Shown: piece by piece, positions 1 through 41,000 of the stretch
Numbering within the stretch: the first letter of the stretch is position 1
Layout: the number at the start of each line of letters is the position of its first letter
DNA from: Perna viridis
Lineage: Eukaryota
Direction of reading: 5' to 3'
Length of the DNA stretch: 64,000 bases
Assembly (NCBI GenBank): GCA_037379345.1
Contig: CM074518.1
Span: 42,807,586 to 42,871,585 of the forward strand
The notes under the pieces: generated by a model
Seen by the model: the letters and a program-made list of their open reading frames with translations, nothing else
What the model was told of the DNA's origin: nothing
Database searches by the model: none
Position numbers and translations under genes: made by a program

Positions 1-399
1 TTCCCTGAAAACGAATATGTTTGTTCTCTTCTCATAAGAGATCACCGCAATCAAGTGACGTCAAATTATCTCTTTCCTTTGTGTTTTAATATATCTATTT
101 CGCTGTCACTTTTAGGACGTTTCTGGTTGTACGAAAACGAGTTTAGACGAATACGCTTGGCTTCAACTCACACGGTAATTTCAATTCGCAAAGAATCGTT
201 TTCGGGACACTGGTGTTCTGTCAAAACGTTCAAAACTGACGTTTTCCTGTTTTTAGGGATGCCATATTAAATGTAATGTAACTTTGTAATTGGAATAATT
301 GCAGATATTTGCACCAGTTTCCTGAAATAAGAAATTATCAGGCAGTAGAAATAAGATGCCCATGAAATAGAAATAATACGCTATTGTTTCTCCTTCCAG

Positions 400-3229
400 C
401 TTCAAACATTGGTACAACTCCACGAGTCAATAGTGTAATAGGGGTACCTTTACCTAGCCCACGAATAATATCAAACGCCGTTCACAGAGGTGGGGTGTCT
501 CCACCAAGGAGTACTATCTTCAACGTTGCTCTGACTCATTTTGGGCAATTCATCGACCACGACATAATATCTACACCCATTCTTAGAGGTAATATAACGG
601 GAAACAGTTGTCATAATTAGATTAAAAGTGATTGCGTAAACCCTATGTCGTTTACCCTTTATCGCATGCCTTATATCACACCCCAAGGCCTATATCGTAT
701 ACCTTGTATCACCCCCTTGGACCTATATCGCATACCCCATATCGCACCCTAATAGTTGCACACTTGAAGTATAGTCAAACCCTATGATATAATGAATATG
801 ACATTCCAAAATCTGTATCACGCATGATATCAACCCTTGACCTACAGAACCCTGCGGGCCGGTGGGTCCCAAAAAGTACCAAAAGTACAATACTGCTGTT
901 TCCTTTTTACTGCAACACTGCAACTCTTTTTTTTTTGGACACAATTTTTGGTTCTTCTCCAAAGAACTTCAGATGAAGGATACTACAGACACTGTGAAGC
1001 CTCTTATATCTTAACCGATACTTAGAGATCGATGGTAAAGGAAAACTACTGATCTAACTATACGACAAACGCGATTACTGTTCATTCCGTATTTTCAACG
1101 TTTTCTTTTATCTGTGGCAACATCCATTCAGCACCTGCGTATAGAGTTTTCAAATCAAACCTCATGCATTATGCCAGAGCTTGTAGTAACTATGTAGACT
1201 TAGTTTTTTTTACAATTCGGCCTCTGGAACCGGGGTGCTACAGGATTGAAGTCATCACTACCGAAGTTTTATGGTCGTCATCTTGAAGTGAATAGTTACG
1301 GTATATCCATCGGCACCTTAAAAACTGATTTGTTCAACGTGTCAAGTTTTCCTTTCCTCTTCCATCTACTGTGAAAAAGCTGAGTACCCTTACTCTATCG
1401 GTGCACTTGGTTGTGTCATGCTCTCAGTGGAGTCTAAGTTGCTTTGTAACTTTGTACGTTTTAGTTTGTGTGTCTGTTTTCCATGTCTAGTTTTTCATTG
1501 GTTTGGTTCCCTTTTTTCACTCTTTGTATAATCTTCCCAAAAGGCGTCATACATGTTTAAGAAATTATTATGTAAAGCAACTTTATAAATTTAGATCACT
1601 ATTTTATCCTCAGCTGGATATCCTCCATTCATTTACAGAAATATTATATAAATAATATAACTTTTGCATATTAGACACGCTTTTACCTAGAGTATGGTAT
1701 TACACTGCAAGCGTCAAAATGTTTGCTTTTTCAGCGATTAACAATCTGGTGCGAAAAAAGTAACTGCATATTTGCATTTTAAAACAATATTTCAAAACCT
1801 CAAAATTTGGAACCATCGATAATATTTGACAATAATAAAGAGACTAAATTTGTGTAAACTTAACTTTGATGCAATAACTTATAATCGTCGGGGAGTATGT
1901 TAGAAAGTTATCGATAGCCTCTCACACCTTTAAGTATCTAAGCATTTTGAATTAGATTACAATGCGTTTTTATCGACGAATTATGTGTCTGAATAAATAG
2001 ACGATTAAAAGGCTATTTACCATAACATATTTTCGTTTGATGACTGTATAACCTCTAGATTAAGGGACTTATATGATAGCAAAGTCAACTGTAGTCATGT
2101 TCAAATCATATGAAACCAATTAAACTTGAATTTCAGGATGTTTGCTGCTCATGTTTAGTTATTTCTTTACCTTAGACTTACCTGTATGTGTTGGTTTTTT
2201 TTAATAGACAAAACCCGCTTATACAAATCCTATGGGAAAATCAAGTCAAATACTATTCAAAATTTTAAAAAGCTTACATCTAAAAAACGAGCGCACTTAT
2301 CCATCATTTTTTTTTTCATATATTGTTCTTTAGCGTGCAAGATCGCACGTGATTGCACAACCATTTGAAATCTTGTTATTCTTAAACACAGCAGCGAACA
2401 TCCTTAAGAAACACGTTTAGTCCAATGATCGCTTATCAAAGTTTACTTAAAGTGCAAAATTTAATGATGATGCATTGTAGCACAACGTAATTTGTTAATC
2501 AAAGTATGCGTCTTATGACCATAAAAGTACTTTCTGAAGTGTTTTGTCATACAATTTGTCAACCGTGTTTACCGGTACATCAAGATCAAACGGTCTACAT
2601 GTTTTTATAGCAAATTTAGTGTAATCTGGTACTAAATTTAATTTCGGTACATTGTAAGATATTAGCAACTTTATCCAAAATTATGTTTCCTTTTATAAAT
2701 TTCCCAATTTAAATTGCCACGAAGCAACATCCGACAAAAGTAAAAATCCAAGGCTCTTAGACATTAAATGATTAGAGTCGATTTTCATAAAAAATGACAT
2801 CATATGATATTTCTAAAATCTTATCTAGACTCAATTTTCGACCGATCAAAACACTTAGATTTCAGATTTGAAGAAATTAGAAATTATTCGAGCAAATATC
2901 TCAATGTTTTATAAGCCAATTTAGTCGTAATGTGACCATGAATCTTTGTGTGAAAATAGTTAATATTGCTCATTGTTTCCTATGTTTTTCTTAATTAGAC
3001 CTCTTGGTAACTCCACCTTGAGATAGAGTGTCAATGAGCTACATGTATGTAGCAAGACTCTCATCTACTTTTACTCGCATTTACATTGTGCAAGTGGCAA
3101 AGGAATGCGTGTGTATTTATACCGAGCATTAAATACCACTTCTGTTTGTTTGTTTGTTTGCTTGCTTATTTTTTGTTGTTGTTGTGTGTTCATTCTTTTG
3201 TTGTTGTTTGTTTTTGTGTTTGCTTTTTG

Positions 3230-3260
<31 letters not shown>

Positions 3261-6200
3261 GTTTTTTTTGTTTTGTTTTGAATGTAGATCGTTCTTTTTT
3301 TTAGGTTAACGTTTACATCATGGCTGTAATGTCTTTGAATTGTCCTTCTTTTTTGTCGGTATTTTTACCGATAGTAAGAGAATCGCGCTTTAACTCTGAA
3401 TGGAAAAAATAGTATTTGTTGATTTATTATTTATTTCTACATTGTACTCTATATAAATACAGGTGAGAATTTTGCGGCTATGCTTTACAGTAGAGAGAAA
3501 ATCATTATAAAACTGTGTGTAATGGTGTGTAACTGTGGAATACCGGGAAAAGTTCTGCTGAGCATTGAGCTCATTGCTTTTATCACTCAAGCTTTTTTCT
3601 TGTGTTTTAACTTTTTCAATGATTCAAAAAAACTCTTACTTAAGTTAATTATAATAAGTTTTGTAAAAACAAGTTTTCAAAACTCAATCGGTAAAGTCAG
3701 CAAAATATATAGACCAGATTAAATAATAGAATAAATTACATAACTGTACACATAACAAAACTTAACATTAAAGATTAATGATTGGTTTTCCTAAATCTCG
3801 CTGTAGTGTAGAACAACTAATGATATATCAATGGGTTTTTTTGTTTTTTCAGATGGTAATGAAGAAATACGATGCTGTACCGGTGCAGGTGTGCCAGTTT
3901 TAAGGTAGAACGAAAAAGGCTGATATAAGCATGTCTTTTCAGTATAAAAAGTGGGCAGGTGTACCTTTTTTTAAATATAGTAGGCTCGGAACCCCTATCT
4001 GTGAACCAAGTTGTACCAGATTTTTTATTTATATAATGGTAAGAACCTCCTGATGCCAAAGATACTTAGTCATATTTATGACAATTAAATATCTCTATGA
4101 CGGTTCCATGGAAAGAGTAAGTAGAACTAGACTGTTTATTGTTAATTTATAAGACATATTTGCATCCATTGAAGAACTATTCTAATTCTGATATGTAACT
4201 AATGAATTAATTGTCGAATATTGAATGAAAAAAACATGAATATAGAGATAGAACTCTAGCTTTCTCAGAATTGCGACGACTAAATAGCGTTTTCCAACTA
4301 TAGAACAAATATAAATATATATCTGATTTTTTAAATACATGTATATATCTGTTGTTATACTGTTTTGGCCATTCATTTCTGGCGCAGTATTTTTAAACAC
4401 TGTTTTAAAAGTACAAGTACATTATTGACGTAGGAAATGTATATTCACTAATACTGACAATGTTTTAGACCAGAATGCTTTTCATTTTTCACACCACCCG
4501 GAGATTTCCAAACAACGTGCATGCACTTTGTTCGATCGGACTTTGGTCCAGAACCAGGATGTCCTCCAGGTATTTTATCAATTCTGTATACATAGTTAGG
4601 CCTGCATTTATCAAAACCTAGCATTGTCAGATTAGTGTTTTTTTTTCACCGTGGTAATACAAATTGCTTCAAGAAATGCTAGAAATAATTCAGTACGAAT
4701 TGCATTTCATAATGCCAAAAGAAATGAAATACGGACATTTAATGTGATCCTGAATGCCTCGGTTGCCTCGCGTAAACGTGCCACAATCTTATAAGTATTC
4801 CATACTGAACTTCGGCTATTTTGATTCAAAACATTGGATTTTACATTTTTTTGTCGCCGATGGGTGACTTACTGTAACTAGCAATTCCATTGTGAGACAT
4901 GTAGGTAATATGACACTAAACGGAACCATGTAATACGTTTGAGTACAAGTTACCTTTGATATCCACATAAGTTTTTTTTGTAGAAAATACAAACTGTCAG
5001 TGTGTATCATTTGTATGATATGCTTCATAAAATCAAAATAGGAACTGGAAGCAGAAAGAGTAATCAATGGAACCAAGGTTATAGCGGTAATCAAAAGAAT
5101 GTAATCCAGGGACAAAGACCAGACATGGAAAACAGGCATACACAACAAAGAACATAAAGTAGCTAAAATCATACATACAAGGTAACAAAAGGAATTGAGC
5201 AACTTGGACTCCACTAAAAACTGGGAGCTTGGACCAGGTGCAGCGGTAGGGAAAGCATTACGATCTTGACGCATTACGTATCTTATCATATATATATGTA
5301 TTGTTTCATTAATTTCAGGACCTAGGAATCAGATAAATCAGAGAACGTCCTTCCTGGATCTATCTGTAACCTATGGCAATACACGTGACGGGCAAAATGA
5401 TCTCCGTGAATTTAATACAGGTGTGTATAATTGTTTGTAATTGACAGTCCTCCCAAAAAAAACTGAAATGTGTAATGTAATATTCATGCTCAGGAATTTT
5501 AGAAGAGAACTTTCATAAAATTTGAAAGCTGTGTATAGGAAAATTGGTATTCTAATTGATATTTTAAAGTTGCATTATTTTTAAATATCTATGTCAATTT
5601 ATATAATTTCAATATTGTAATAAATGAAATTAATCCGTCCACATACATTATCAAGAGTTATGAACACAAATGTAACTCACACTTTGATGATTCGTTGCCT
5701 TAACTCGACCAGACTGTTTTATGGTACAATTCTTGTACTTTCAGGTCGTCTTTTGGAAGGCCCAGGCCGAATTCTACCAGAGGGTCCTAGTGGTTCTGAA
5801 TGTGTAGGACCATCCCCTTGTTTCAAAGCCGGTAAAAAATGTTTGATAATTCAAAAATATACTAAATGTTCGAAGTCTCAGCAATGATGTGTGTTTGTTC
5901 GTAGTTTGAACGATGGTCAATAACCTTAATTACTTGCTAATCGTTACATGTTGTGTAAAACCTTTATCTAAATATAACAGTACTACTACAGTTCGTATAA
6001 ACAGATTGTTGTCTTTGCATGCGCTTGAGGTTGGGAAGCGGAAACGGTACAATTAACACTTAAGAAAGTTTATTGTAGTTTATAAACAAACCTCATTTTG
6101 CCTACGATCCTGTTTTTCATATTTATAGTAACGTTCATTTCTCGGTTTAACTATAATGTGGATGCAATTCAGTAGAAATAATCACGAACACGATAAGCTA

Positions 6201-9200
6201 TCATATCATTGTGATACAAAACAGTTTGTTTGTTTGTCTATGCATTCTGAAGCCAGTAAGACTCAACTATACATCACAAAATTACATCATACATTTTTTC
6301 TAACGAATACTCGTTTTCTGTAATAGGAGACAACAGACCTGCTGAAATTCCGATGTTGACCGTGATGCATATAGTATTTTTAAGAGAACATAATGACATT
6401 GTCGATGGATTGAGGAGTATGAACCCTTCATGGGATGACGAGCGTTTGTATCAAGTTGCGAAAAAGATACTAACGGGAATATATCAGCATATAATATATA
6501 CAGAGTTCTTGCCGATTATCATAGGTCAACAAGGCATGGATATATTTGGATTAAGAAGTACTCCAGTTGGTCACAGTAATAGCTACAACCCAACAGCTAA
6601 TCCCGCGACCCGTAACGCCTTTGGAGCTGCAGCTTATAGATTCGGCCATTCTCTAGTTGGTTCATTTGTTGCAGCATACAATATAGATTTAACTCCAAGG
6701 GCAACTGATCTCTTAGAAAACAATTTCTTCCGGACCGATGCTATTAGAAATCCAGCTTTATTTGGGGCAGATGGTATTGGACGCTGGATGACGTCGCAAC
6801 TCAAGAGTAGGGCTGACCGATTCCTTACGCCATCTGTTAGAGATAGACTATTTCAGACAGCGCCTGGTAATGGATTTGACTTAAGTGCATTGAATATTCA
6901 ACGTGGTAGGGACCACGGCATTCCCTCGTATAACCGTTGGAGGCAGTTTTGTGGACTTCCACCTGCTCTTCACTTTGGAACCGGACCTTTGGGATTAATC
7001 AATCATGATCCATCTGCTGCCGCTGCTTTGGGCTCAGTTTACAGGTATAATATGTTGTATTGAGTTTCTTCTTGTATATACAATTAATGTACTGTACAAA
7101 ATGTATAAGTAAGCTGAAATTTTCTTTTATCCATTGCGACACAGGGCCTATGTCTGAAGTTTTGGATTCAATAGGACAATCTTGTTGCTTTAATAACTTG
7201 TGGATATGGAAAATGACATCAAGATGTCGCTGAGATACACAATCACCAAATTACAGAATCGCCATCGTTACAAAAAATGTAGGCATTTTGACAAAATTAC
7301 TACCGATCTGTGTAACAAAACTGAAGTGTAAATTAATGTATTTGTTTTTTGTTCAGTCAATATGTATTTGACATTTTTTTAGTCATCCAAATGATATCGA
7401 TCTCTATGCTGGGGCTCTATCGGAAAGACCAGCTCCAGGGGCGCTCGTTGGTCCAATATTCAGATGTATCATTGGGCTTCAATTCAGATTGTATAAGATT
7501 GGTGATCGATTCTTCTATGAAAACAACTTTGTTCCTACTGGTTTCACGACGGGTGAGTTCATTTTCAGGATGTTTCTGTATTTTTTTTAAAAAGATTTCC
7601 TAGACTATTTCAGCTCTTTTTGCTAGTCAGATCCCAAGTAGTCCCACAGAAACACTTGTTTACATAATCTGTCGTCAGGCATTTTCATAAGTCTATTCCA
7701 GTATCTAACCATATGTTGAAAATGTCTATGTCGTGATGGTAACCAACCCATATCTCCGATTATTGCCGATTTAGGTGCGAACTTGTGTACTCCTAAGAAG
7801 TATCTGATTGCTTTATTTTGAACATTGTCAATACAGTTGAAACCTTTAAATCCCCATATAGCAGCATTATAGTCAATAATCGGAGCCACACATGAGTAGA
7901 ACAGTTTTTGAAAAGTACTAACTCCACAGTCCTTTAGCCCGTGCACTTTTGAGATTAGGGCCCCGAGGGCACGACCTCCAGCCTTAGCAAGATTATCGGC
8001 ATTTGACTCGAATGTTTTCTTTTCATGAAATATCACGCCTAGATACTTATATTGTTCTGTTATTTGTAGCATATTATCACCAATTTTAAACTGGAAGGAT
8101 GTTCTTGGTCTTCGTCCCGATCGAAAATGAACGACTTTAGATTTGTCCGTGTTAATGAGAACTCGCCACTTTTTACACCAGTTGTAAAGAGTATTCAGCA
8201 TAAGCTGCATGTCATTCTCGTTAGTCGCAAACATAACTATGTCGTCGGCATACAATAACAGTGAAAGTTTTTTTGAATGGATATCGATACCCAACTCTAG
8301 GTTATTTATTTCCTGAACCAAGTCATTTATGAATATCGAGAATAGAGTCGGGGACAAATTATCACCTTGCTTAACTCCTGAATAGCACGTGAACCAGTCT
8401 GTCATAGTATTGTTTATTCGTATGCTTGCTGAAGTCAATGAATATATACTTTTCACAGAGTTATAAAGTTTACCATCGATATTCTTTAAGAGTAATTTAT
8501 AAAGGAGCATATCACGGTCTACGAAATCGAACGCTTTCTTCAGGTCTACGAAAGTTGCTATTATATTTTGGTTATTTCGAATTATACTGTTCAGTGTAAA
8601 AACATGGTCCTCACATGATCTTTGTCGGCGGAATCCATTTTGCTCGTCTGCAAGTAAATCATTATCCTCTAAATAGGAAGTTAGACGATTGTTCATAAAA
8701 GAGCTAAACAGTTTAGATATACATGACTGTAGACACACTCCTCTATAATTCAATGGTTCTCGCTTATCGGAGGACATGTCTTTCAGGATGGGAAACAATA
8801 TTGCCTTTCTCCATAAAGATGGTATCAAACTTGTATCAAATATCCATTGAAAAAGAGATAGTAGAATTGGTAAGATGTTCGGCGATTTAAGAACTTCGTA
8901 TGGTATTTTATCCAAACCAGTAGCTTTTCCATTTTTCGTGGCTTTAATCACTACAGAGACCTCTTCAATAGTAATATTGGAATTTAATTCTTCGTTACAT
9001 TGATATAACGGATCTAACATGTTGTTTTCTAGTAGATTTTTATGCTGTAGCGATTGTCTATAAAATTCATTATCAAAATCCTGATTTGCATTAGTGTTGT
9101 TGTACATTTTTTCAAATTCGGATTTCCATTTTTCGCAAACTTCATTTTCGTCATTAAGAATATTTCGTTCATCGTCATAAACTTCCATGGGTATTTCGGA

Positions 9201-12200
9201 TTGTTTTCGTGGTCCCATATTACGTATTTTAGCCCAGAATTCGTTAGGGTTTTTTGTTGTCATTGTTTCAAGTTCCTCACAGAACGCATTTCGGTGCCGT
9301 CTTTCATAAAATCTCAATCTACGATCAAATAGTTTTTGTGCACTTTGGAATTGGAGCCGTTTTAATCGTTTCGAATTTGTATTTCCCGTACATTTTAAGA
9401 ATGATCGCTCTTTAAAGTGCATGTCTTTCCAAAGAGTCGATAGTTCTTCATTCCAGTATGGTTTATGATTTCGGAAACGTTTTTTCGTTTTGTTACTTGG
9501 TGCAAAGCAAGGAATTGTATCATCCATCTCCTTTAAGATAGTATCGCACAAATCCGTATATATTCCATCTATGTTGCTTTGTGTTTCACGGGTCCGTTCA
9601 ATACGTGTTATAAGTGTTTGTATTGCTTGTTTCGATATATCAGAGGCGAAAAAATCGTTCGGAATCACCTTCAGTTTATATCGTTTTTTGAAAGCACTTC
9701 CTGATTTTTTACTTATACTATCGACATTAATTTGTGCGTTCAGTTTAGTTTCTAGTACAGAATGATCCGGGACTTTCGAGCGGTCATTTAGGTATCCAAA
9801 TAAGTCGTATTTTTCAACTATCGATCGTATGGTGCAAACCTCGAACGAAATGAATGTCTGTAAAGCTTCATGTGGAACGCATATATAATCGACAACTGAC
9901 TTTCCTTTTCCCGATATGCACGTATAATTGTTTTTTGAATTATCATATCTTCCATTTAGAACGCACGTTTTAGATTCGTTCAAAAAGTCTATAAAGGCAT
10001 GTCCATGTTGATTAATTGCTTTATCAATGCACGACCTTTCCGGTACAGAATCAAACTCTGAAACGTCGCTTAAGGATCCAATGCGCGCATTCAAGTCTCC
10101 GCATATAATATGAGCGTCACAGTCGTTATAAGAGTACATGATTGACAGGATATGCGCAAAGAAACTTTGTGAATCTCGTCCCCAAACTGAATTTTCCGGC
10201 GGTAGATAACAAGATATCACGGTGAAACTGAGGTCGGTACTTTTGGAAGTAAATTTTACACATAGAATACCATCGTATGTAGCGTCTATTATTTCCGAAG
10301 TATATTCCTGATTAATCCAATGTTTGACGAAAAGTCCGACACCCCCAGACCCTTTCGGTGCGTTTCTGTGAATTTCTTTTCTATTCGATCCTATCCATTT
10401 ATAATTTTCTATCTCTAGTTTATCATCATTTTTCAAGTGCGTTTCGCATATACTGAATATATCGGCATCTACATTTTTAACAATCTGCTTTCGTAATAAA
10501 GAGTTATTTTCAGTCCAACCACAAACATTTAGCTGAGCTATGCTAATAGTCCAGTTGCACCGGCCGTGTACCTATTCCGAATCGTTTTGAATATCGTTTG
10601 CCTCCATCGGTACGTTTTCATTTTTCTTAAGAATGCGTCCGCTTCCCGTTATTCTGTACGAATTTCCGTGTGGTAATTCTTTCAATATTGTTCTCGCATT
10701 TGTTTCAAGAAGTCTCTCCATGCGTGATTTCGCGCCCTGGATAAACACCCGTTTATATTCATCAACTTCTTTGAGTTTATATTTATTTCGGAGAACGAGT
10801 ACTTTTTGATCTGAGTTTTCGAAACTGACTTTTATCAATGCCGGTTTGTCACGAAATCGCTTTCGTAGTCTAGCTGCTGCTACAATTTTCACGTCATTTG
10901 ATATATCTTCACCGATACTATTTATAATGTTATTTGCTTTTTCGGTTATATCTTCATCGTCAGAATATGGAACATTTTTAACTATAACGGTGATTTCATT
11001 GTCATTCAGTGGATCTGGCCTACGTGGATTGCCGTGAGCATTTTGTGTATTCGCTTGACCGTTATTGCCTAATCCATGTTCATCGACCGGTACATTGTCA
11101 ACAATACCCTGTATAGTATCAATACGTGTAGTGAGTGTTTCTAAAGATTTAGCGAGGGTGTCCATGCGTGACGATTCACGGGCCATATCAATGTCTATGT
11201 CAGTTTTTAGAGCTTTTATTTTATCATCAATAGTTGATAGGACATCTTTTCTTAGTTTGTCAATTTTTGATTCAACCATCTTTTTCATACTATCTTGTCC
11301 ATCTTTTATTTCTTTAACACTTTTGGCAATAGAAAGTACTGAGTCTTTTAATTCATTGAAATCGGACAATTCACAGGTAGCCATTTTACTTTGTTTACGT
11401 TCGGGTTTGGGGGTCTCACCTTCAGAACTTCGCTGTCTTTTGTTAAATTCGTTCGTTGAGTCCGTCATACTCCAGAAACATATGAAATATTCATAGTGTC
11501 AACATCACTTCAAATTTCTAATGTTTTTAAGCACTTAAAGTTCATTTTTTCACTAGTATTTACGCTGCTCGTGTTATTGTGTACCTTTCCACGGTATCTA
11601 TATAAGGGCCTGAAAAATTCCCAACGATGTTAGAACTGTCAAATTTGCGAAGCAAATTTTTTTGGTCGTTCCCTCCGACTCGAACTCGTACCGCTGTGAC
11701 ATCTATGGCAACACCGCCTGCACTACGTCCAGCGCCCTAGACCACTCGACCAGCTAGGCTATATAAAGATATAGCTTTCGCTGGCCGGGTCATACCTCCT
11801 CGTAGGATTATTCTAGGGCTGTAACTTAGTACACGATGCATGTTGGGAACAGTTCATCTAGGTGTTATTATGTAGGATAGAGGATCAAATTAATGATGCA
11901 TGTCACAACAAATCAATATTATACACCGTCGCAGAATGTGACGACTCTATTCTATAAGTTAACGTTATCTTCCCTGTATCAATTTGATCCGATGGAGCAG
12001 TGTAGCGAATAGAGTCGTCACATTCTGAGACGTTGTATAATATTGATTTGTTGTGCCATGCATCATTAATTTGATCCTCTGTCCTACATAAAAACACCTA
12101 AATGAACTGTCCCGTACTACCATACATCGTGTACTAAGTTACAGCCCTAGATTAATCCTACGAGGAGGAATGACCCGGCCAGCGAAAGCTAAATCTTTAT

Positions 12201-13380
12201 GTAGCCTAGCTGGTCGAGTGGTCTAGGGCGCTGGACTTAGTGCAGGCGGTGTTGCCATAAATGTCACAGCGGTACGAGTTCCAGTCCCGCGGAGAGAACG
12301 ACCAAAAAATTTGCTTCGCAAATTTGACAGTTCTAACATGGTTGGGAATTTGTCAGGCTCTTCTTTAAGTTAACGTTATCTTACCTATATCTATTTGATC
12401 CCATGGAACAGTCTAGCGAATAGAGTCGTCACATTCTGAGACGTTGTGTATATGTGACGACTCTATTCGCTACACTGCTCTATCGGGTCAAATTGATACA
12501 GGGAAGATATGTAAACGTATAGAAAGGTCTGAAAAATTCCAATTACATAATAACATCTAAATGAACTGTCCCGTACTACCATACATCGTGTACTAAGTTA
12601 CAGTCCTAGATTAATCCTACGAGGAATGACCCGGCCAGCGAAAGCTATATTTTAATATAGCCTAGCTGGCCGAGTGGTCTAGGGCGCTGGACTTTGTGCA
12701 GGCAGTGTTGCCATAGATGTCACAGCGACACGAGTTCGAGTCCCGCGGAGGGAACGACCAAAAATTTGCATCGCAAATTTGACAGTTCTAACATGGTTGG
12801 GAATTTTTCAGACCTTTCTATACGTTTACATATCTTTCCTGTATCACTTTGATCCGATGGAGCAGTGTAGCGAATAGAGTCGTCACATTCTGAGACGGTG
12901 TATAATATTGATTTGTTGTGACATGCATCATTAATTTGATCCTCTATCCTACATAATAACATCTAAATGAACTGTCCTGTACTACCATACATCGTGTACT
13001 AAGTTACAGCCCTAGATTAATCCTACGAGGAGGAATGACCCGGCCAGCGAAAGCTATATTTTAATATAGCCTAGCTGGCCGAGTGGTCTAGGGCGCTGGA
13101 CTTAGTGCGGGCGATGTTGCCATAGATGTCACAGCGATACAAGTTCGAGTCCCGCGGAGGGAACGACCAAACATTTGCACAAATTTGACAGTTCTAACAT
13201 CGTTGGGAATTTTTCAGACCTTTCTATACGTTTACATATCTTCCCTGTATCAATTTGATCCGATGGAGCAGTTCCAACATCGTTGGGAATTTTTCAGACC
13301 TTTCTATACGTTTACATATCTTCCCTGTATCAATTTGATCCGATGGAGCAGTTCCTACATCGTTGGGAATTTTCGGACCT

Positions 13381-13418
<38 letters not shown>

Positions 13419-20017: not shown

Positions 20018-23000
20018 ATGAACATGGAAACGTTGTCAAATGATTACAAGAGGACATTTATTCTTGTTCAAGCTGCAGTTATGTATTTTTACAGAACATG
20101 GGGTAAGCACACGCGTTTGTTTAATACAGCATGGCAGTATCTATTCATATCTATGATTGTTCCCCAAAAGTAAATAATTCACAAATTGGTTTCGATGTTT
20201 GTAAAGGTTAATCAAAATACAATACGCATTGTATATTATATAATTTTTTTTGTTTTGTTTTGTTTTGTTTTTTTGTTTTTGTTTTTTTAATTTTTTAGGT
20301 TTTTGTTTTTTTATGTATATATACCATGTTTTTTTTATTATTTTGAATTCAGTAAAAGAAATGTTTTATGTACCATAAATGACTGTGTATAATTAAGCAT
20401 TGAGGCTTTACATTGAGGAGCTATTTGAACATATAACGTTTATTTCTAATAGCCCGTCGTCAATTTGAGAAAAAAAAACTCATTGGGTATTCACGCGTTG
20501 GTAAAGTCATGTATTTCTCCCTGTAAAAGTAATCAAGAGAGCCAAAGTTATAGTGTAATTTAAAAGAATGTAATCCAGGGAAAAGACCAGAAATGAAAAA
20601 CAGACATATACAACAAAGAACATAAAGTAACTAAAATCAAACATACAAAGAAACAAAAGCAAATGGGCTACTCGGACTCCATCAAAATTGGGAGCATTGA
20701 CCAGGTGCACCGGTAGGGTAGGGTCATCTGCTTTTCTAGAAACACCAGCCCAGTTATTCATAAAAAAGGCATGTCCGGGGTAGACGAAAGAGGAAAGGAA
20801 ATCTATGGCACGTTGATGATGATGACCATACAACTTCTGTAGTGGTGACTTCAATCTTGTAGAAACATCTTGCAAAAGAATGAAAACATGCTTTTTCTCT
20901 TCTTAATGGCCTTCAAGAGGGTTTTGGTGCCTCCTTTTCTTTATATGTACTTTTTAAATTACCAATTTAATGTATAAAATTGAAAAGATATTTATAGTAT
21001 ATATTATGATTTTTTTTTCAGGTCAAAACTTATGTTTTATAAAATTTATACAAATATGTACTGCTTATCTTGTCAGAAAGTTTATGTGCTTGACAGTATG
21101 TGAAATCTTGTGTTTCAACCCCTTTAAATTTTAGCTAAAATTTCTTATATTTGTATTTGAAGAACACCGGGTCTCATCAACAGTCTTGGTTCTCACATTT
21201 TGAAGAAAAAATTGATGTTTGGTTGACTGCAATTACATGTAAACTAAATCTTATAATAATTTTTTCAGCACTTCAAGAAGTTTTGCTTCCTATAGATACA
21301 CCAAATATAGGAAACAAGGACATTTGGGAAGAGGATTTTTTATTTCATGTCATTGACCTTACGGGCTATAGATTGGAAACACGGAACTTGTCATTCTTTT
21401 CATTTCATGTAAGGGCTTGTGCTGACTGTGCATTATACCTAACAGACTCAGAACATGTGCAAAATGCAAGTGAATTGTACAGCATTTATTTTGGAGCCTC
21501 ACGTAACAATTATTCTGCAATACGTCTGTGGAGAAATAAAACCGGCAAACAGTTAACTAGAACGTACGGAGCTTTCTTAGATTGCAACGAATTTAAGTCA
21601 TTCTGGGTTAGCTTGAATGACGGTTTGCTTCAGTTTGGTAAAGGACAAGAAGCAGGAACTGACGTCATATCAACATGGTTAGACCCTACGCCAATCACTA
21701 TAAATGGTGTTGGTATAGCTACAGGGTTTGGACAAACTGGAAGATGGAAAGTACCATTGAGTGGTAAGTGGTTTTTGCAATTAATATGGAATGGTCTCAA
21801 GTAGCTGTATTTGTAAGGGTCATATAAGTATGAATGGGTGATTCATTTTAAACAAAATGCATTCTTTCGTCGGTAGGCATTATATAGTTTTATGATTTAA
21901 TAGTCAATAATTTTTCACTAAAGGTCATAGATGAATATTATTTTGAGAGTATTTTGAAATAGGGGTTACGACAATTGTCCCATTTTTTTCTATTTGAGAA
22001 CTTCAATGTTCTAGAACATTCAAAACATATCGCAAATATTGACACCACTGCAGTACTCTTGAAAGAACAACTTCTCAACGAGTTTATTCACATCTTTAAG
22101 ATATAGTTTGGACTATTGCAGCTTATGACAGATTTGAAACAGCATCTCAGTTGATAGCAATGCCTACTTTATCGTTATCCTTCACACCCCTTTTTGAACC
22201 CATTTAATCTATATACAAATGTACCAAACACTACATGCATCACACTAGACTGATAGTATTCTCTTACAAAAGACACGCACGTTGATGTTATTCAATAAAA
22301 CCAAAATATTCTATCAAAATAATTATACACTTGGTAGATCAATTGTTTTACAGTTTGTGATTTAATAATGAAGAAACATTGAATGGGATGACTCTCTGAT
22401 TAAAATATGACGAAGCTCTAAAACATCAAAAAACCGGATATTATGAGCTTATGTTAATTCGCGTTCCGAACACACTTGCGCATAATCTTGATTTTTAAAG
22501 AAGGATTACGATATTTGATGAATAATTTGTAAATACATCATCTAGTCAATTTATTTTTTACGTTTTATTTTCTGTCGCCTGATACTTAAACCAAATTCAT
22601 CTTATTGAAAGAGCAATATGCTTCGTCTCCGATAAGGTCATACCATGCAAGATTCATTGACGTTTTGATATTTGATTTAATTTTTATATTGCTCTCATAC
22701 ATTTTTGATTCCCATTCAGAGGCTTTCTAGACTTAAATGAGATGAAAGATAGATGCATAACCATCATAAAACTGAGGAAATTCCTTATGCTCGCAAATGA
22801 ACACTTTGCACGTTTAATCTTATGTTAACGGGTCTGATATTGGAACATTTCTAACATGACGTTATCCCTGCTTTCAACGGTTTTATATAAAAATTAGACA
22901 TTATCATTCATATGTATGTGGTAATGAAGTACTAATTTTATAGGATTTTTTTATCATTATCTTATCGAACTTCTTTTTGACATTCTCCGTACAAGTGACT

Positions 23001-29307: not shown

Positions 29308-32300
29308 ATGAAAGTTATGCTAGTTTACACTGGACTTTTATATTTTTACAGTTTACAAGGTAAGAAGTAGATTTTCTTTTGAATTATTGTCATTGTAATA
29401 GAGTAATCATGTACCATACATACAAAAAAAATAATAGTGTTTTATTGATAACTTTCTATTTAGTACCGACTTAATGTTCAAAGAATATTATACTTAAGTT
29501 TAATTGTATTCCCTACTTGCGGAGCTCGGGATGCAGCCATATTTTGTCCTGTTTTTGCAGAGCTACCTCCCGTAAGAGTAGGTGTAATTTCGAAGTCTCT
29601 CTAATCGATGTTCGGATTCGGGTGCAGAAAAAAGAGGTAACTCGAATGAAAATGGAATCCCCAGCAGACAAACACAATGGTGTTTCTAAAATTTACAGGG
29701 TGTTTCGTTTTGTTGGTAGGTTACATAAGGATGATTTTCATTTGTATTCCGGGTAAAGAAAATTTATAGCAGGGTCAGTAGAACGAGAAATTCCCTTTTG
29801 ACTTTCGAGATTTTCTAAAGTATCGTCAATATCGGATGGAAAACCTTACGTGTTTCGAATAGACACCTGATCCAAAGGGAGACAAATGTTGACAAAATGT
29901 TGGTCCGTAAGTCGGGAATAGCTCAGTTAGGCATGTGAATATACAATATGTCCATCGATCAACTTAACACTATCAAATTAAAAATTCTTTTAAAATGAAG
30001 GGACAATATATCAACCAAAATGAACAAAGTGAAGCTTTTACTCTTACATCCATTTTTCTTCAAATTGTAAAAGTACATGTTATAGTTTTTGAACCAGCTT
30101 TAAGGATAGCTGCTTTCGTTGTGTTTTAAAACTTCTTATACTGCGATTTCGCTTTTATTCCAGCTTTTGAGGTTATTGTTCCTATAAATTCTCCGGATAT
30201 AGGTAACAGAGATATATGGGTTTCTGACTTTCTTTCGCACATCATTGACCTAAAACACTATGGATTGAATGCGCGAGGATTTTCGTCCTTTTCATTTGAA
30301 ATCAAGGCCTGTGCTGATGCATCCTTATATCTAACTGAATCGGAGCATATACAGAATGCTACATCACTGTACAATATTTATATTGGAGCAGGAGGAAACG
30401 CCCATTCTGAAATCCGTGTTTGGAGAAACAAACAACCTCGTCATGTAGTTTCCACTTTACGGTACGAAACGTTCTTAAACTGCAACGTGTATATGCCCTT
30501 CTGGATAAGCTTGAATGGTAGTTTTCTCCAGTTCGGTAAGGGAAAATCAACATGGAATAATCTGATATCTAGTTGGAATGACCCTACGTCGTTTGAAGTA
30601 AATGGTATCGGAATAGCAACTGGTTTCGGACAAACTGGGAAATGGAAAATTCCAGTTAATAGTAAGTTTTTGAAGTGCCTAAATTCAAACATGAAATTCA
30701 CCCGATTCATTAAAAAATATTCATGAGACGAATGCATAGAATTCTTTATTTTCTGCTCATTTTCCATGCCTACAATATGCGTGTTCCTTAAAGATGCATT
30801 TTCAATTACGTGTTAGCCAAACTTGTTCCTGTATAATTAACAAGCAAGGAAATAGTGTTTTTATAGTCGGCTACATGTACACATAACCACTGTTCAATCC
30901 TTTTGCTGTACACAAACAACTGCTGTGTTCGGCTCTACCTGCTATTTTATTTTGTGTTATAACTGTAACCAATTTTTCGTCATATTTTTACCAATACTTC
31001 CCAGGTCCGTATCTATCCTACATCCTACATAAGGCCTTACACAAAACATATTTGAAAGCATATTTGTTTTGGTAGTTGAACAAAGAATTAAAACTTCATA
31101 CTAATAACTATTATACGGGTGTTTAACCATCTGTTTTAACTTTTTGTGTTCCAATAAAGATGGAACATTAAATGGGCCGTCTAAAGTAAATGGAAAACGT
31201 TAGTTCAACACACAATATGCATTTGTTTTGTACATGTAAAAGCCAAGAACCCTGAGTTCATAATAATTGATTTTTTTTTCTCCAATAAAAAACACCTATA
31301 AGAGATAAAAAATGATTATCATTAGTGCAGCATCATAAAATTTATCACGTTACGTCACTACAAATAAGCGCGAAAATGAAGTTCACATTTGACTAATGGC
31401 AATTTGCTCATTACGAATTTTAAAGCAAAATTGCATTTATCAACAACTTTAAGCTTTTCTAAACATGAAAAAGATATCCCAACTTTTTTGTTAAGAAAAC
31501 AAAAGTTAATATTCTCAACTTGCATGGTCATGGTTGTGAAGTACTACTTTGAATGATGTTTCCAAAAACTCCGAACAAATCCTACGATATATATCATGTT
31601 GCTAAACAATATACAAGAAATGAAACAAAACATTATTGCATTGAACGTTTTGATATGTTTCCTGTTTTATGAATAACGATTTACTTTTGTGATCACAGTT
31701 AAAACTGCGTTGCACATTTGTAATTCAGTTAAAGACAAATGCTCTTTCACAATCTAAGGTCAGCTTCATTGCAATTTTTTGTTCTGTTTTTTGTTTTTTG
31801 TTTTTGTTTTTGTTTTTGTGTTTTTGGGTTTTTTTTGTTTGTCTTTGATTTGTATTGTTCTGTGTTTCCGTGAAAAGATAAAAGTAGTAACAAAGAAGAT
31901 TGAAATTATCGTGAACTCAACATGTTCATGTTTTTTTTTTCTCCGTTTAATTAATAATAAGAAGTCATCCTGATAAACATTACCGTATTGAAATCTGAAC
32001 ATGTAGTTTCATTGTTTAATTTTGACCTCCGCTAGTGGTTCTTTGTTAAAGTACATCATGTATATCCTTTAGTACGTTCATATCCGTAATCATTGAGATT
32101 TTTTTACACGTTTCGAGTCTAAGCTGATAGGAGTACAGGGCGCACAAGGTGTATATTCAGATCTATTGAAACGTATATATTGATGTAGTTTTAAGTATCA
32201 GTCATTCTAAAAATCAGACAGAAGGTGATTCATGCATGTCAAAAACCCACCAAATTTAGTTTTATTTCTTGTTCAGAAACAGTTACTGATTACGTAACCA

Positions 32301-38063: not shown

Positions 38064-41000
38064 CTATCGTCTTTTATAATGGAATTCGTGCCATGGTCGT
38101 AGGTCCAATTTGTGGTGAAACTGACAAGGAATTCGTGGTGTACTGAAAAAAAATCAATATGTAAAACCAACTATGGTAAAATATCGCAATGTTTTAAATT
38201 GTCAATGGATAGCTTATGATTTATTTCTGTAATAATCAGGCAGTGGGTAAATTATGCAGGAAAATAACACAATATTTTGATTCAATATATTCAACACATG
38301 CCGGTACTTAAAACCAAAATCGTAATTCTATATCAATTTTTGAAAAGTTGTTTTTAATGTTTCTTCATTTCAGATTGTAAGATAGCAAATATGCATATCA
38401 TTCATTTGAAATTGTGTGGAGAAATAATTTCTTATATGACTGACCAACAGAAGTAAAACATTTACCCTGGATTCAAAGGAATGCAAAATGATTTTGTACC
38501 CGGAATCGATTGATTTAACCACTATTTTACAATCAATAACTGAAGTAGAAGTCGTAACGAATTTAATAAACTAAAACTTTTGCAATTTACTCATTAACAA
38601 ATAAAAATGTTAATGTTTCAACTTACCCAGCTTTATCTGATACAAATGCATTTGCCGGCATACTACCAACACGTATAGTTCGGCAGTATAATGCTGAGAG
38701 TGTCTGTCTTTTTATCTGCATTAATTGAGCTAAAATAAAAGGAAATGTAATTGATTAACATAGTACAAGTTTTGTGACATGTAAATCATTCGAAGATGAT
38801 ATCGTAAGAGTCTAAGTTTATGCTGTTTAAAGTGTATCATTGCTGTTTATTGTGTCCTTAAAAATGCAAAATCGTTGTTACAACCGGTTTTTAATCGATG
38901 TTGTTTCTTTACACAAGAAAGCATTTGAAAAATTGAGTTTATGTAGACAAGTACACATTTTTACTTAGTCAACTTGCAATTGACAGCGTGCTTGTAGAAA
39001 CATTTAAATGTTTTTGAAGACTAAATGATATGACAAATACAATGGTTGCACATTGAAATATTAGTACTAACTGGGAAACATTGTGACGAATATCATTTTG
39101 CCGGATTATCTTAAACTTTGCCTGTTCATGTATTACTGTAATGTCCCTCATACTTATGAGATGTGAAATTACCTTTACTTACCAGGAGTAAATCCAGTAA
39201 GTTTAAAATTGTTTTCATAGAAAAACCGATCACCAGTCTTGTACATTTTAAACTGAAGACCGATAATACATCTGAATGTCGGGCCAACTAGTGCTCCAGG
39301 TGCAGGTCGCTCCGAGAGTGCACCAGCAAAGAGATCAATATCTTCTGGATGTCTACAACATTCATATTAATTGGTGTTGTGCTATTTCTAGGCAAAAGTT
39401 CGATTTTTTTCACTTGTAAAGATAAAGGAAACACATACGGTTTAATCAATAAGTGCATGATGATTCCTAACCATTACTAATACTACAAATAAGGAGGTAG
39501 ACCTAGCGTAAGGGGCATAACTCTTGAAATCAGTGATATGTTTGTATCATATTCAATTTTACAGAAGCCTTTCACGCTTTCCTTTGAAACAGAATAAAAT
39601 CAGTTCAATTTACTTTGATGCTTACACAAGATTGATATAAAATGCTGAATACAAACGTTCAAATGATTTGTAATAGTTGCATCCCTTACCTAGGTCTACC
39701 TCTTTAAATAATACAAACAATGTTTTTCATTATCAATCAAGCCATTATGAAATCGAAAAATTATATATATGAAAATAAGAAATAAACATAATAAAACTCC
39801 ACTCACAAAGTATGTAATGATTTATGGCATTGGAATCTGATTAATCATGTTTTTGTGTAATTTATATGATTTATATGATGACTATTAACTCTTATAGTGT
39901 TCATATTTAGTTTTTAATATGATATACTATTTGATAGATATCAAAATCTCAAAATATGCGTTCTTTGTTTCAATTCTAAAATGTTTATTTTTACCAAGTG
40001 TAGTTTGAATACCCGTAACAAACATTGATAACGAGGCCAACCAGTATACAATACCTGTAAACATATTTCAATGCATCTGCCACTGGTGGTTCGTGACTTG
40101 ACAATCCAAATGGTCCAGTTCCAAAATACATTGCAGGCCGGAGACCACAAAACTGTCGCCATCGATTGTATGACGGAATGCCGTGGTCCCTTCCACGCTG
40201 AATATTAAGTGCACTTAGATCAAATCCATTTCCAGGCATCGTTTGGAATAATCTCTCCCTGACAGCGGTTGTTAAGAACCGGTCAGCCCGACTACTCAGT
40301 TGTGAGGTCATCCAACGTCCGATACCATCTGTTCCGAATGACGATTTATTTCTTATAGTTTCAGGTTTAAAAAATTGATTTTCTAGAACGTCAACAGCCT
40401 TTGGGGTAAATTTTGGATCATAAGCCGCAACAAACGAACCAATTAGAGAATGACCAAATCGGTAGGCTGCTGCGCCAAACGAATTCCGAGTAGACGGGTT
40501 TATTTTTGGATTGTAACTGGTCAAATATCCAAGTGATCTACTTCTTAGTCCAAACATTTCCATTCCTTGGTGACCAATTATTATTGGCAAAAACTCAGTA
40601 TAAATGATGTGCTGATAGATGCCCGTCACAATCTTTTTTGCTTCTTGAAATAGGCGTTCGCTGTTCCATCCAGGGTTCACGACTTTTAATTCCTCGACAA
40701 TGTTGTTGTGTTCGCGGAGGAATATGATATGTACCACGGTTAGCATTGGATTTTCAGACGTTCTGTCGTCGCCTTCAAGATAAAGAGTAGTATGGATGGA
40801 GAGTCGACCAAAAAGTGACTATAATGTTTAATCTAAAATTGGCATTATGTATTGTTTCGACATAAAACAAACGGTATATCCAATTGCACCAAGAGAACCA
40901 ATTTGTTCAATGTCTCATCCTTTTTCGTCTATTCTGGATTTGGCATTTTGTGAGCAAGTCTGTTTCTAGAAAATCAGAGGACGCTTACCCTACTGGTGCA

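Follow-up and report, generated by a model that had tools for sequence, protein, structure and literature searches.

How ORF2 is translated from the RNA of a two-gene LINE has been described as an open question (PMC3894237), and a LINE copy in the genome of Perna viridis raises it directly: its ORF2 follows ORF1 in the same frame after a single UAG and has no AUG ahead of the endonuclease. The copy lies in a 64,000-nt stretch of contig CM074518.1 (positions 42,807,586 to 42,871,585), here called the window, for which a sequence-only reading had proposed that ribosomes read through the UAG. The features needed below are, in window coordinates:

7639..11605, minus strand: LINE copy, near full at its 5' end and broken at its 3' end
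10575..11468, minus strand: ORF1, 298 aa, with coiled coil, L1-type RRM and C-terminal domain, and disordered tail
10572..10574, minus strand: the lone stop separating ORF1 from ORF2, an in-frame UAG with GUA after it
7640..10571, minus strand: ORF2 without AUG, encoding APE endonuclease (PF03372, PF14529) and reverse transcriptase (PF00078)
10137..10139, minus strand: codon 145 of ORF2, its earliest in-frame ATG, which falls within the endonuclease
10548..10571, minus strand: predicted proximal pairing element, +1..+24 after the stop, with core CCGG at +9..+12 (10563-10560)

The window element and its copies

The element is an APE-type non-LTR retrotransposon (LINE) by its domains and copy structure, and its copy in the window, which is broken, belongs to a young family. 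ORF1 is open from 11498 to 10575, with its first ATG at 11468, and the minus strand at the junction reads GAT TCG GAA TAG GTA CAC GGC CGG, as the sequence-only reading had it. Also as described there, ORF2 begins in frame directly after the ORF1 stop with no spacer (10571-7623, 982 aa plus stop), its own stop falling in flanking DNA past the break at 7639. The endonuclease motifs NVCG, CETH and YLPP occupy ORF2 codons 15, 42 and 122, and all precede the first in-frame ATG (codon 145, window 10139). Throughout the window family no AUG was found near the ORF2 start, nor in any frame within 30 nt of the UAG.

About 740 nt are missing from the 3' end of the window copy, comprising the C-terminal CCHC finger, the 3' UTR, the predicted distal pairing site and the TTAC-repeat tail, and this part has no match anywhere in the 64-kb window. 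Searching the genome at the DNA level returned 13 matches, of which 9 are at 99-100% identity. Sister copies are 99.6-99.8% identical to the window copy over 11605-7639, and complete ones are about 4.7 kb long. Their 5' ends are scattered among the 8 copies fetched (variable 5' truncation), and AATAAA followed by TTAC repeats forms the 3' end in 7 of the 8 copies shown, the eighth ending within the first unit. Because six sister copies carry an intact 1167-aa ORF2 at >99.6% identity, the family has spread recently with the TAG in place. TAG GTA is kept in all eight near-identical copies that span the junction, the window copy included, with no sense codon at this position, and the frame between the ORFs does not vary among close relatives. 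The window ORF2 is cut after about residue 977 of 1167, so the fusion of about 1280 aa first proposed reflects a copy broken at 7639; with the sister ORF2 of 1167 aa a full fusion would reach about 1466 aa.

The AlphaFold model of ORF1p (pLDDT 75.8) contains a coiled coil, an RRM and a C-terminal domain, by which the modelled protein is of L1 type. Foldseek with this model gave 8 matches at E<=0.001, all human L1 ORF1p, although a PDB sequence search using the ORF1 profile gave nothing significant. The best PDB matches of ORF2 are L1 ORF2p and R2. Pfam scanning detected no protease domain in the element proteins, and neither Pfam nor the structure model gave an SGNH esterase in ORF1p. The clade is probably RTE-X or Proto2, a placement that rests on bivalve relatives and on motifs typical of these clades. 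An SGNH esterase is present in ORF1p of some RTEX members (PMC3905857). RTE-X and Proto2 LINEs occur in bivalves and, like the present element, have two ORFs, APE-RT architecture, a C-terminal CCHC finger and a length of about 4.7 kb (PMC10294476). Named relatives come from Mytilus, Mercenaria, Mya, Ruditapes and medaka, and a quick RT tree built without reference clade members separates the group from the other LINEs of the genome.

As for its surroundings, two haem peroxidase genes face each other in the window (366-7590, plus; 39991-40818, minus), and the LINE apparently lies within an intron of the first, with an exon-like ORF 50 nt away. Two ORFs with a farnesoic acid O-methyltransferase domain lie at 21139-21804 and 30130-30726 (plus). 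The 5' end of the LINE is flanked directly by nested units of about 410-455 bp that occur in both orientations (11600-13400), and the same unit is present at the loci L076, L084, L085 and L093.

The junction across families

Related loci were surveyed in the element's own genome, in metagenome contigs and in host-like contigs within prokaryote assemblies. Each locus was placed by its first endonuclease strand, those without a detectable Asn motif being left out, and families were defined as clusters under 80% APE identity; 67 clusters became 65 when L007 was merged and L221, with no stop on its contig, was dropped. A junction counted as in frame when at least 150 open codons preceded the stop in that frame. 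By this rule 38 families are in frame; in 10 the long upstream frame is a different one, and 17 could not be assigned to either class. The 38 derive from the own genome (11), metagenomes (2) and other assemblies (25), and 20 of them come from two assembly records, perhaps of one host. Two of the 10 scored as other-frame (L026 and L071) are on inspection decayed in-frame TAG junctions and were not added to the 38. Many full-length eukaryotic LINEs (L149-L228) are found in bacterial assemblies from animal symbionts, likely as host DNA, and one LINE protein from such assemblies (P0100) is labelled a bacterial reverse transcriptase.

The junction stop is TAG in 36 of the 38 in-frame families and TAA in two, as against TAG at 4/29 terminal stops of ORF2 and 6/31 chance stops upstream of ORF1; the families are related and therefore not independent trials, so p-values overstate their independence. 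A G directly follows the junction stop in 29/38 families (background 0.27-0.29). No AUG precedes the endonuclease in 33/38, with linkers of 6 to 309 codons. G-ending Lys/Glu/Gln codons keep their G in 176 of 486 nearest-family comparisons, with synonymous sites saturated, and since synonymous G is kept in only this share, retention of TAG points to selection and not to mere recency. The in-frame TAG state spans the RT tree of the group (a quick tree, leaving out 8 families with too little RT).

It is scarcely credible that the UAG is a private nonsense mutation, marks a dead lineage, or belongs to a host code that reads UAG as sense. Although the window copy is itself damaged, the six near-identical sister copies retain intact ORF2s, and in-frame TAG occurs 0 times in 23 intact ORF2s (27,152 codons), the same codon serving as terminator in the 4/29 noted above. 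The copy and family survey thus refutes a private nonsense mutation.

The sequence around the stop falls into contexts that fit viral readthrough classes. Type III readthrough uses an in-frame UAG followed by GGV, GUA or GAU, so that the UAG-GUA of the window family is, as had been suggested for it, a listed context (PMC13517186). The strict type III hexamer is present in 8/38 families and UAG-G in 29/38; as described in the same source, UAG-G alone is not leaky and viruses need a stimulator (PMC13517186). The family L033 (L090-L093, L060, L290) has UAA-CAG-UUA at the junction, which is the type I, tobacco-mosaic-type consensus (PMC5382211, PMC13517186).

Other arrangements also occur. At the stop position L152 has TTC and thus one continuous ORF of 1487 aa (junction near 1130); the sister family L151, about 72% identical to it in aa sequence, carries TAG there. 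In the same tree, L161, L171, L176 and L184 have ORF1 in another frame. Near position 4000 of L161, ORF1 runs in another frame into the first endonuclease strand; this locus has neither an AUG for ORF2 nor a duplex, and may represent a frameshift family. In other LINE clades of the genome the ORFs overlap in another frame and an AUG lies near the start of the endonuclease. Two control families also have ORF2 in the frame of ORF1, but with TAA as the stop and an AUG soon after it (54 nt on in L284, 9 nt in L286), and for this reason a shared frame alone is not diagnostic.

The main rival to readthrough is AUG-independent termination-reinitiation. ORF1p would be released, the ribosome, held by the predicted duplex described below, would restart at or near the next codon, and ORF2p would be a separate protein. 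Reinitiation has been described for SART1, with downstream structure, and proposed for mammalian L1, and post-termination 80S ribosomes can restart in vitro at non-AUG, even non-cognate, codons (PMC5972666). The window family has an AUU at codon 9 from which a complete endonuclease could be initiated, and near-cognate start codons are available in 28/38 families. Furthermore, an enzyme fused to ORF1p would be pulled into ORF1p coiled-coil trimers, which may be awkward. However, reinitiation needs neither frame 0, nor UAG over UAA or UGA, nor a following G. In 10/38 families no AUG or near-cognate codon is available that preserves the first endonuclease strand, a natural ORF1-ORF2 fusion exists (L152), and in control LINEs with nearby AUGs ORF1 ends mostly in TAA or TGA and the duplex is absent. 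Reinitiation is, for these reasons, an unlikely source of ORF2p.

Splicing, with TAG|G as a 3' splice site that joins ORF2 to an upstream start, deserves hardly any weight. The acceptor consensus is indeed matched by TAG and the G after it, but there is no pyrimidine tract (0.41 pyrimidines at -20..-3 vs 0.43 in the ORF1 body), reads and contigs contain no splice joints at the low depth available, and none of the 8 fetched sister copies is a processed copy beginning at the junction. Two raw RNA runs yielded 26 and 10 reads, with depth 0-2 at the junction, most of the reads being in element sense, assuming a stranded library of the common type. Two contigs, whose RNA origin is guessed, cross the junction unspliced with TAG, and none of the sequence records carrying the element is listed as RNA.

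Complementarity between the junction and the 3' end

The sequence-only reading had pointed to the 80 nt or so after the stop as a possible site of conserved structure. Local structure there is at chance level (mean z 0.05-0.08 for 70-nt windows in 38 families, in pseudoknot-free folding), the local fold of the window junction scores z -0.4 to -0.8, and the 3' UTR by itself shows no structure (z +0.7). The signal is instead a predicted long-range duplex with the 3' end. Codons 3 and 4 downstream of the stop end in G or C much more frequently than expected from the encoded amino acids (27 vs 12.2 and 28 vs 13.3; z about 5). For the window family, pairing of +1..+24 with the 3' UTR is the best in the whole element at -30.0 kcal/mol, the next being -20.4, and a predicted duplex extended over the stop reaches -37.8 kcal/mol. 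In complete copies the predicted partner lies about 70-90 nt after the ORF2 stop (L074 5746-5765). It is absent from the window copy, which would be inactive because its 3' end with the distal site is lost.

In a first scan for partners across whole elements, the ORF2 end or 3' UTR ranked in the top two for 14/24 families. This 3' zone was picked after the fact from that scan and was therefore tested further. The top hit fell inside it for 8/23 real segments, vs 11/184 shuffles and 11/138 other segments. When +4..+21 was compared with the own 3' zone in 30 families (13 of 43 having been left out without a usable 3' end), the mean z was -2.6, 15/30 families fell below -2, and the 3' zone was the best of about 8 own windows in 16/30 (3.7 expected). 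The other 11 offsets gave mean z of -0.01 to -0.47, leaving +4..+21 as the only one of 12 with signal. Of the 30, 10 families were absent from the first scan, and 6 of these are below z -2. Six further new families all have TAG-G and 5/6 of them score below z -3, with the frame not shown in four of the six, where ORF1 is decayed. In control LINEs 1/12 fell below z -2 (L282, AUG-type, -3.8). The ranking across families is weaker, the own zone coming first in 5/25 and in the top three in 13/25; sister families share the site.

The placement and variation of the two arms are also informative. Double changes between close families preserve pairing, as with C-G to U-A at +18 between the window family and family B, and L103, L268 and L267 form their pairing with unrelated sequences at one shared position, 12-19 nt ahead of the ORF2 stop. 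Stop-proximal and 3'-terminal sequences are thus complementary, with compensatory changes, in the predicted pairing. The start of the proximal arm falls 4-10 nt past the stop in 30/31 copies, in a search segment that began at +4 and to which closer starts are invisible. In 5/6 copies of the close clade, AATAAA follows the distal site after 70-76 nt. The UAA family L033 has a strong duplex with its 3' UTR (z -6.2). L195 is a long-branch, GC-rich LINE with UAG-GGG in a prokaryote assembly, its host possibly not an animal; its duplex of 15-16 bp, directly after the ORF2 stop, is the strongest seen.

Several results count against a duplex-assisted readthrough model. Half of the 30 families miss z<-2, several being weak; L151 and L153 have no 3' partner for the post-stop segment; the stop-less L152 scores z -4.4 (rank 5 of 9, within a tandem tail repeat); the control L282 noted above also gives a signal; and relatives exist with ORF1 in another frame. 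The 3' end of L152 consists of four 41-nt repeats partly complementary to its post-junction bases.

The duplex may also be real and have a sole role other than recoding: it could bring the 3' end and poly(A)-binding protein beside the ORF1 stop, so that the RNA escapes nonsense-mediated decay, or hand ORF2p to its own RNA end. An RNA whose tail folds back to a stop can be protected from decay. The distance of the distal site from AATAAA in the close clade would suit such a role, as would the complementarity retained in stop-less L152. In contrast, the stretch downstream of the ORF1 stop is just as long in control LINEs, of which 11/12 nevertheless lack the duplex, the 4-10 nt between stop and proximal arm are near the spacing of viral stimulators (PMC13517186), and a non-recoding role leaves the production of ORF2 unexplained. 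Such a role is compatible with readthrough; as the only role of the duplex it seems rather unlikely, if less so than reinitiation.

A-to-I editing within the duplex, turning UAG into UIG (Trp), is very improbable. A comparable editing of a stop codon is used by hepatitis delta virus. Editing would account for the strict UAG, the predicted duplex of the window family reaches over the stop, and one decayed family-B copy (L023/L084, G000:C6 near 7584800) has TGG, by chance transition or as a trace of editing. However, the A of the stop is predicted to pair with U, and many families have the stop outside the core helix. L1 shows cis preference, ORF2p copying the RNA that made it, and under such preference edited RNAs would seed TGG copies, yet all eight young copies have TAG. 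Similarly, the two contigs of guessed RNA origin show no letter other than TAG at the junction, and L033 has UAA.

Possible route to the ORF2 protein

Taken together, the comparative data make it likely that ORF2 protein is produced as an ORF1-ORF2 fusion by UAG readthrough, probably stimulated by the predicted 3'-end duplex. Readthrough as first proposed had three supports that are conserved in relatives (frame, stop and context), and two elements, local structure and fusion length, that did not hold. Most ribosomes would terminate at the UAG, setting ORF1p free. The long-range duplex, if it forms in cells, would lie near the mRNA entry channel of a ribosome whose A site holds the UAG and would slow termination, and in a minority of ribosomes a near-cognate tRNA would insert a residue at the UAG. 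Such a ribosome would continue into ORF2, unwinding the duplex, and give a fusion of about 1466 aa that may itself be the working enzyme. The outcome would be much ORF1p and little ORF2p, and ORF2p would be made only from RNAs whose own 3' end is still in place.

More tentatively, the group is quite possibly an ancient animal LINE radiation in which a Gag-Pol-like RT fusion is made by UAG readthrough switched on by a 3' end folding back over 3.5 kb. Only intact RNAs would then make the enzyme, which would be born beside the end that it copies; this would amount to an integrity check and a mechanism for cis-preference, convergent with tombusviruses.

The nearest parallel is the tombusvirus CIRV, whose p36/p95 readthrough at a type III UAG-G needs PRTE-DRTE pairing with the 3' UTR over 3.5 kb (PMC3234231, PMC13517186). 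The LINE resembles it in having UAG-G, a polymerase in frame downstream, and a post-stop site predicted to pair with a 3' end about 3.5 kb away. A CIRV reporter did not work when removed from its genomic context (PMC3234231). In CIRV a large local stem-loop supplies the arm as a bulge of 6 nt, for which compensatory mutants were tested (PMC3234231), whereas the predicted LINE duplex has 10-18 bp directly after the stop, with no conserved local hairpin, and is encoded by a chromosomal element. The gag-pol of MoMLV and epsilonretroviruses likewise fuses a structural or RNA-binding protein to RT through UAG-G (PMC13517186). The retroviral structure starts about 8 nt after the stop, much as the predicted one of the LINE does, but is a local pseudoknot, and the gag-pol fusion is cut by a viral protease (PMC13517186), the domain for which Pfam gave no match in the LINE.

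Among LINEs, the closest precedent is in a ciliate. Under the code of Paramecium the stop cannot be UAG. Group 3 of its germline LINEs, a separate clade, has ORF1 and ORF2 in one frame, for which read-through was suggested from consensus sequences; in the passage of that paper concerned, the suggestion takes a single sentence with no signal analysed (PMC5405496). SART1 and mammalian L1 resemble the window LINE in having a bicistronic RNA and low ORF2 output, SART1 also having a downstream RNA structure, and they use an AUG with overlap (UAAUG in SART1) or spacer to make a separate ORF2p (PMC5972666, PMC3894237). The window LINE differs in its zero spacer, absent AUG and fixed UAG-G, although mammalian L1 and the window family share the L1-type ORF1p fold. 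Stop-restart coupling of the SART1/calicivirus type, with an AUG overlapping the ORF1 stop or close to it, does not fit the window family, whose stop has no AUG within 30 nt.

Our literature searches gave no report of UAG readthrough or long-range pairing in animal LINEs; a Repbase annotation of the junction may exist. Readthrough would be a third route to ORF2, beside the usual answer of reinitiation, and its proposed parts are exact (stop, context and two-arm duplex), with natural compensatory variants available for the two arms. It would also place in a chromosomal element a long-range recoding signal of a kind that we found described only for plant RNA viruses.

The annotation of such LINEs would change as well. 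No fused ORF1-ORF2 protein was found among longer proteins, a weak test, and viral contigs held no relative carrying the junction. Because ORF2 continues in frame past the UAG without an AUG, gene callers cut the protein inside the endonuclease or splice across the stop. Most of the 101 relative protein models begin inside the endonuclease. Four public bivalve models (P0047, P0054, P0057 and P0058) join ORF1 to ORF2 without part of the junction region, the stop apparently being skipped through predicted introns.
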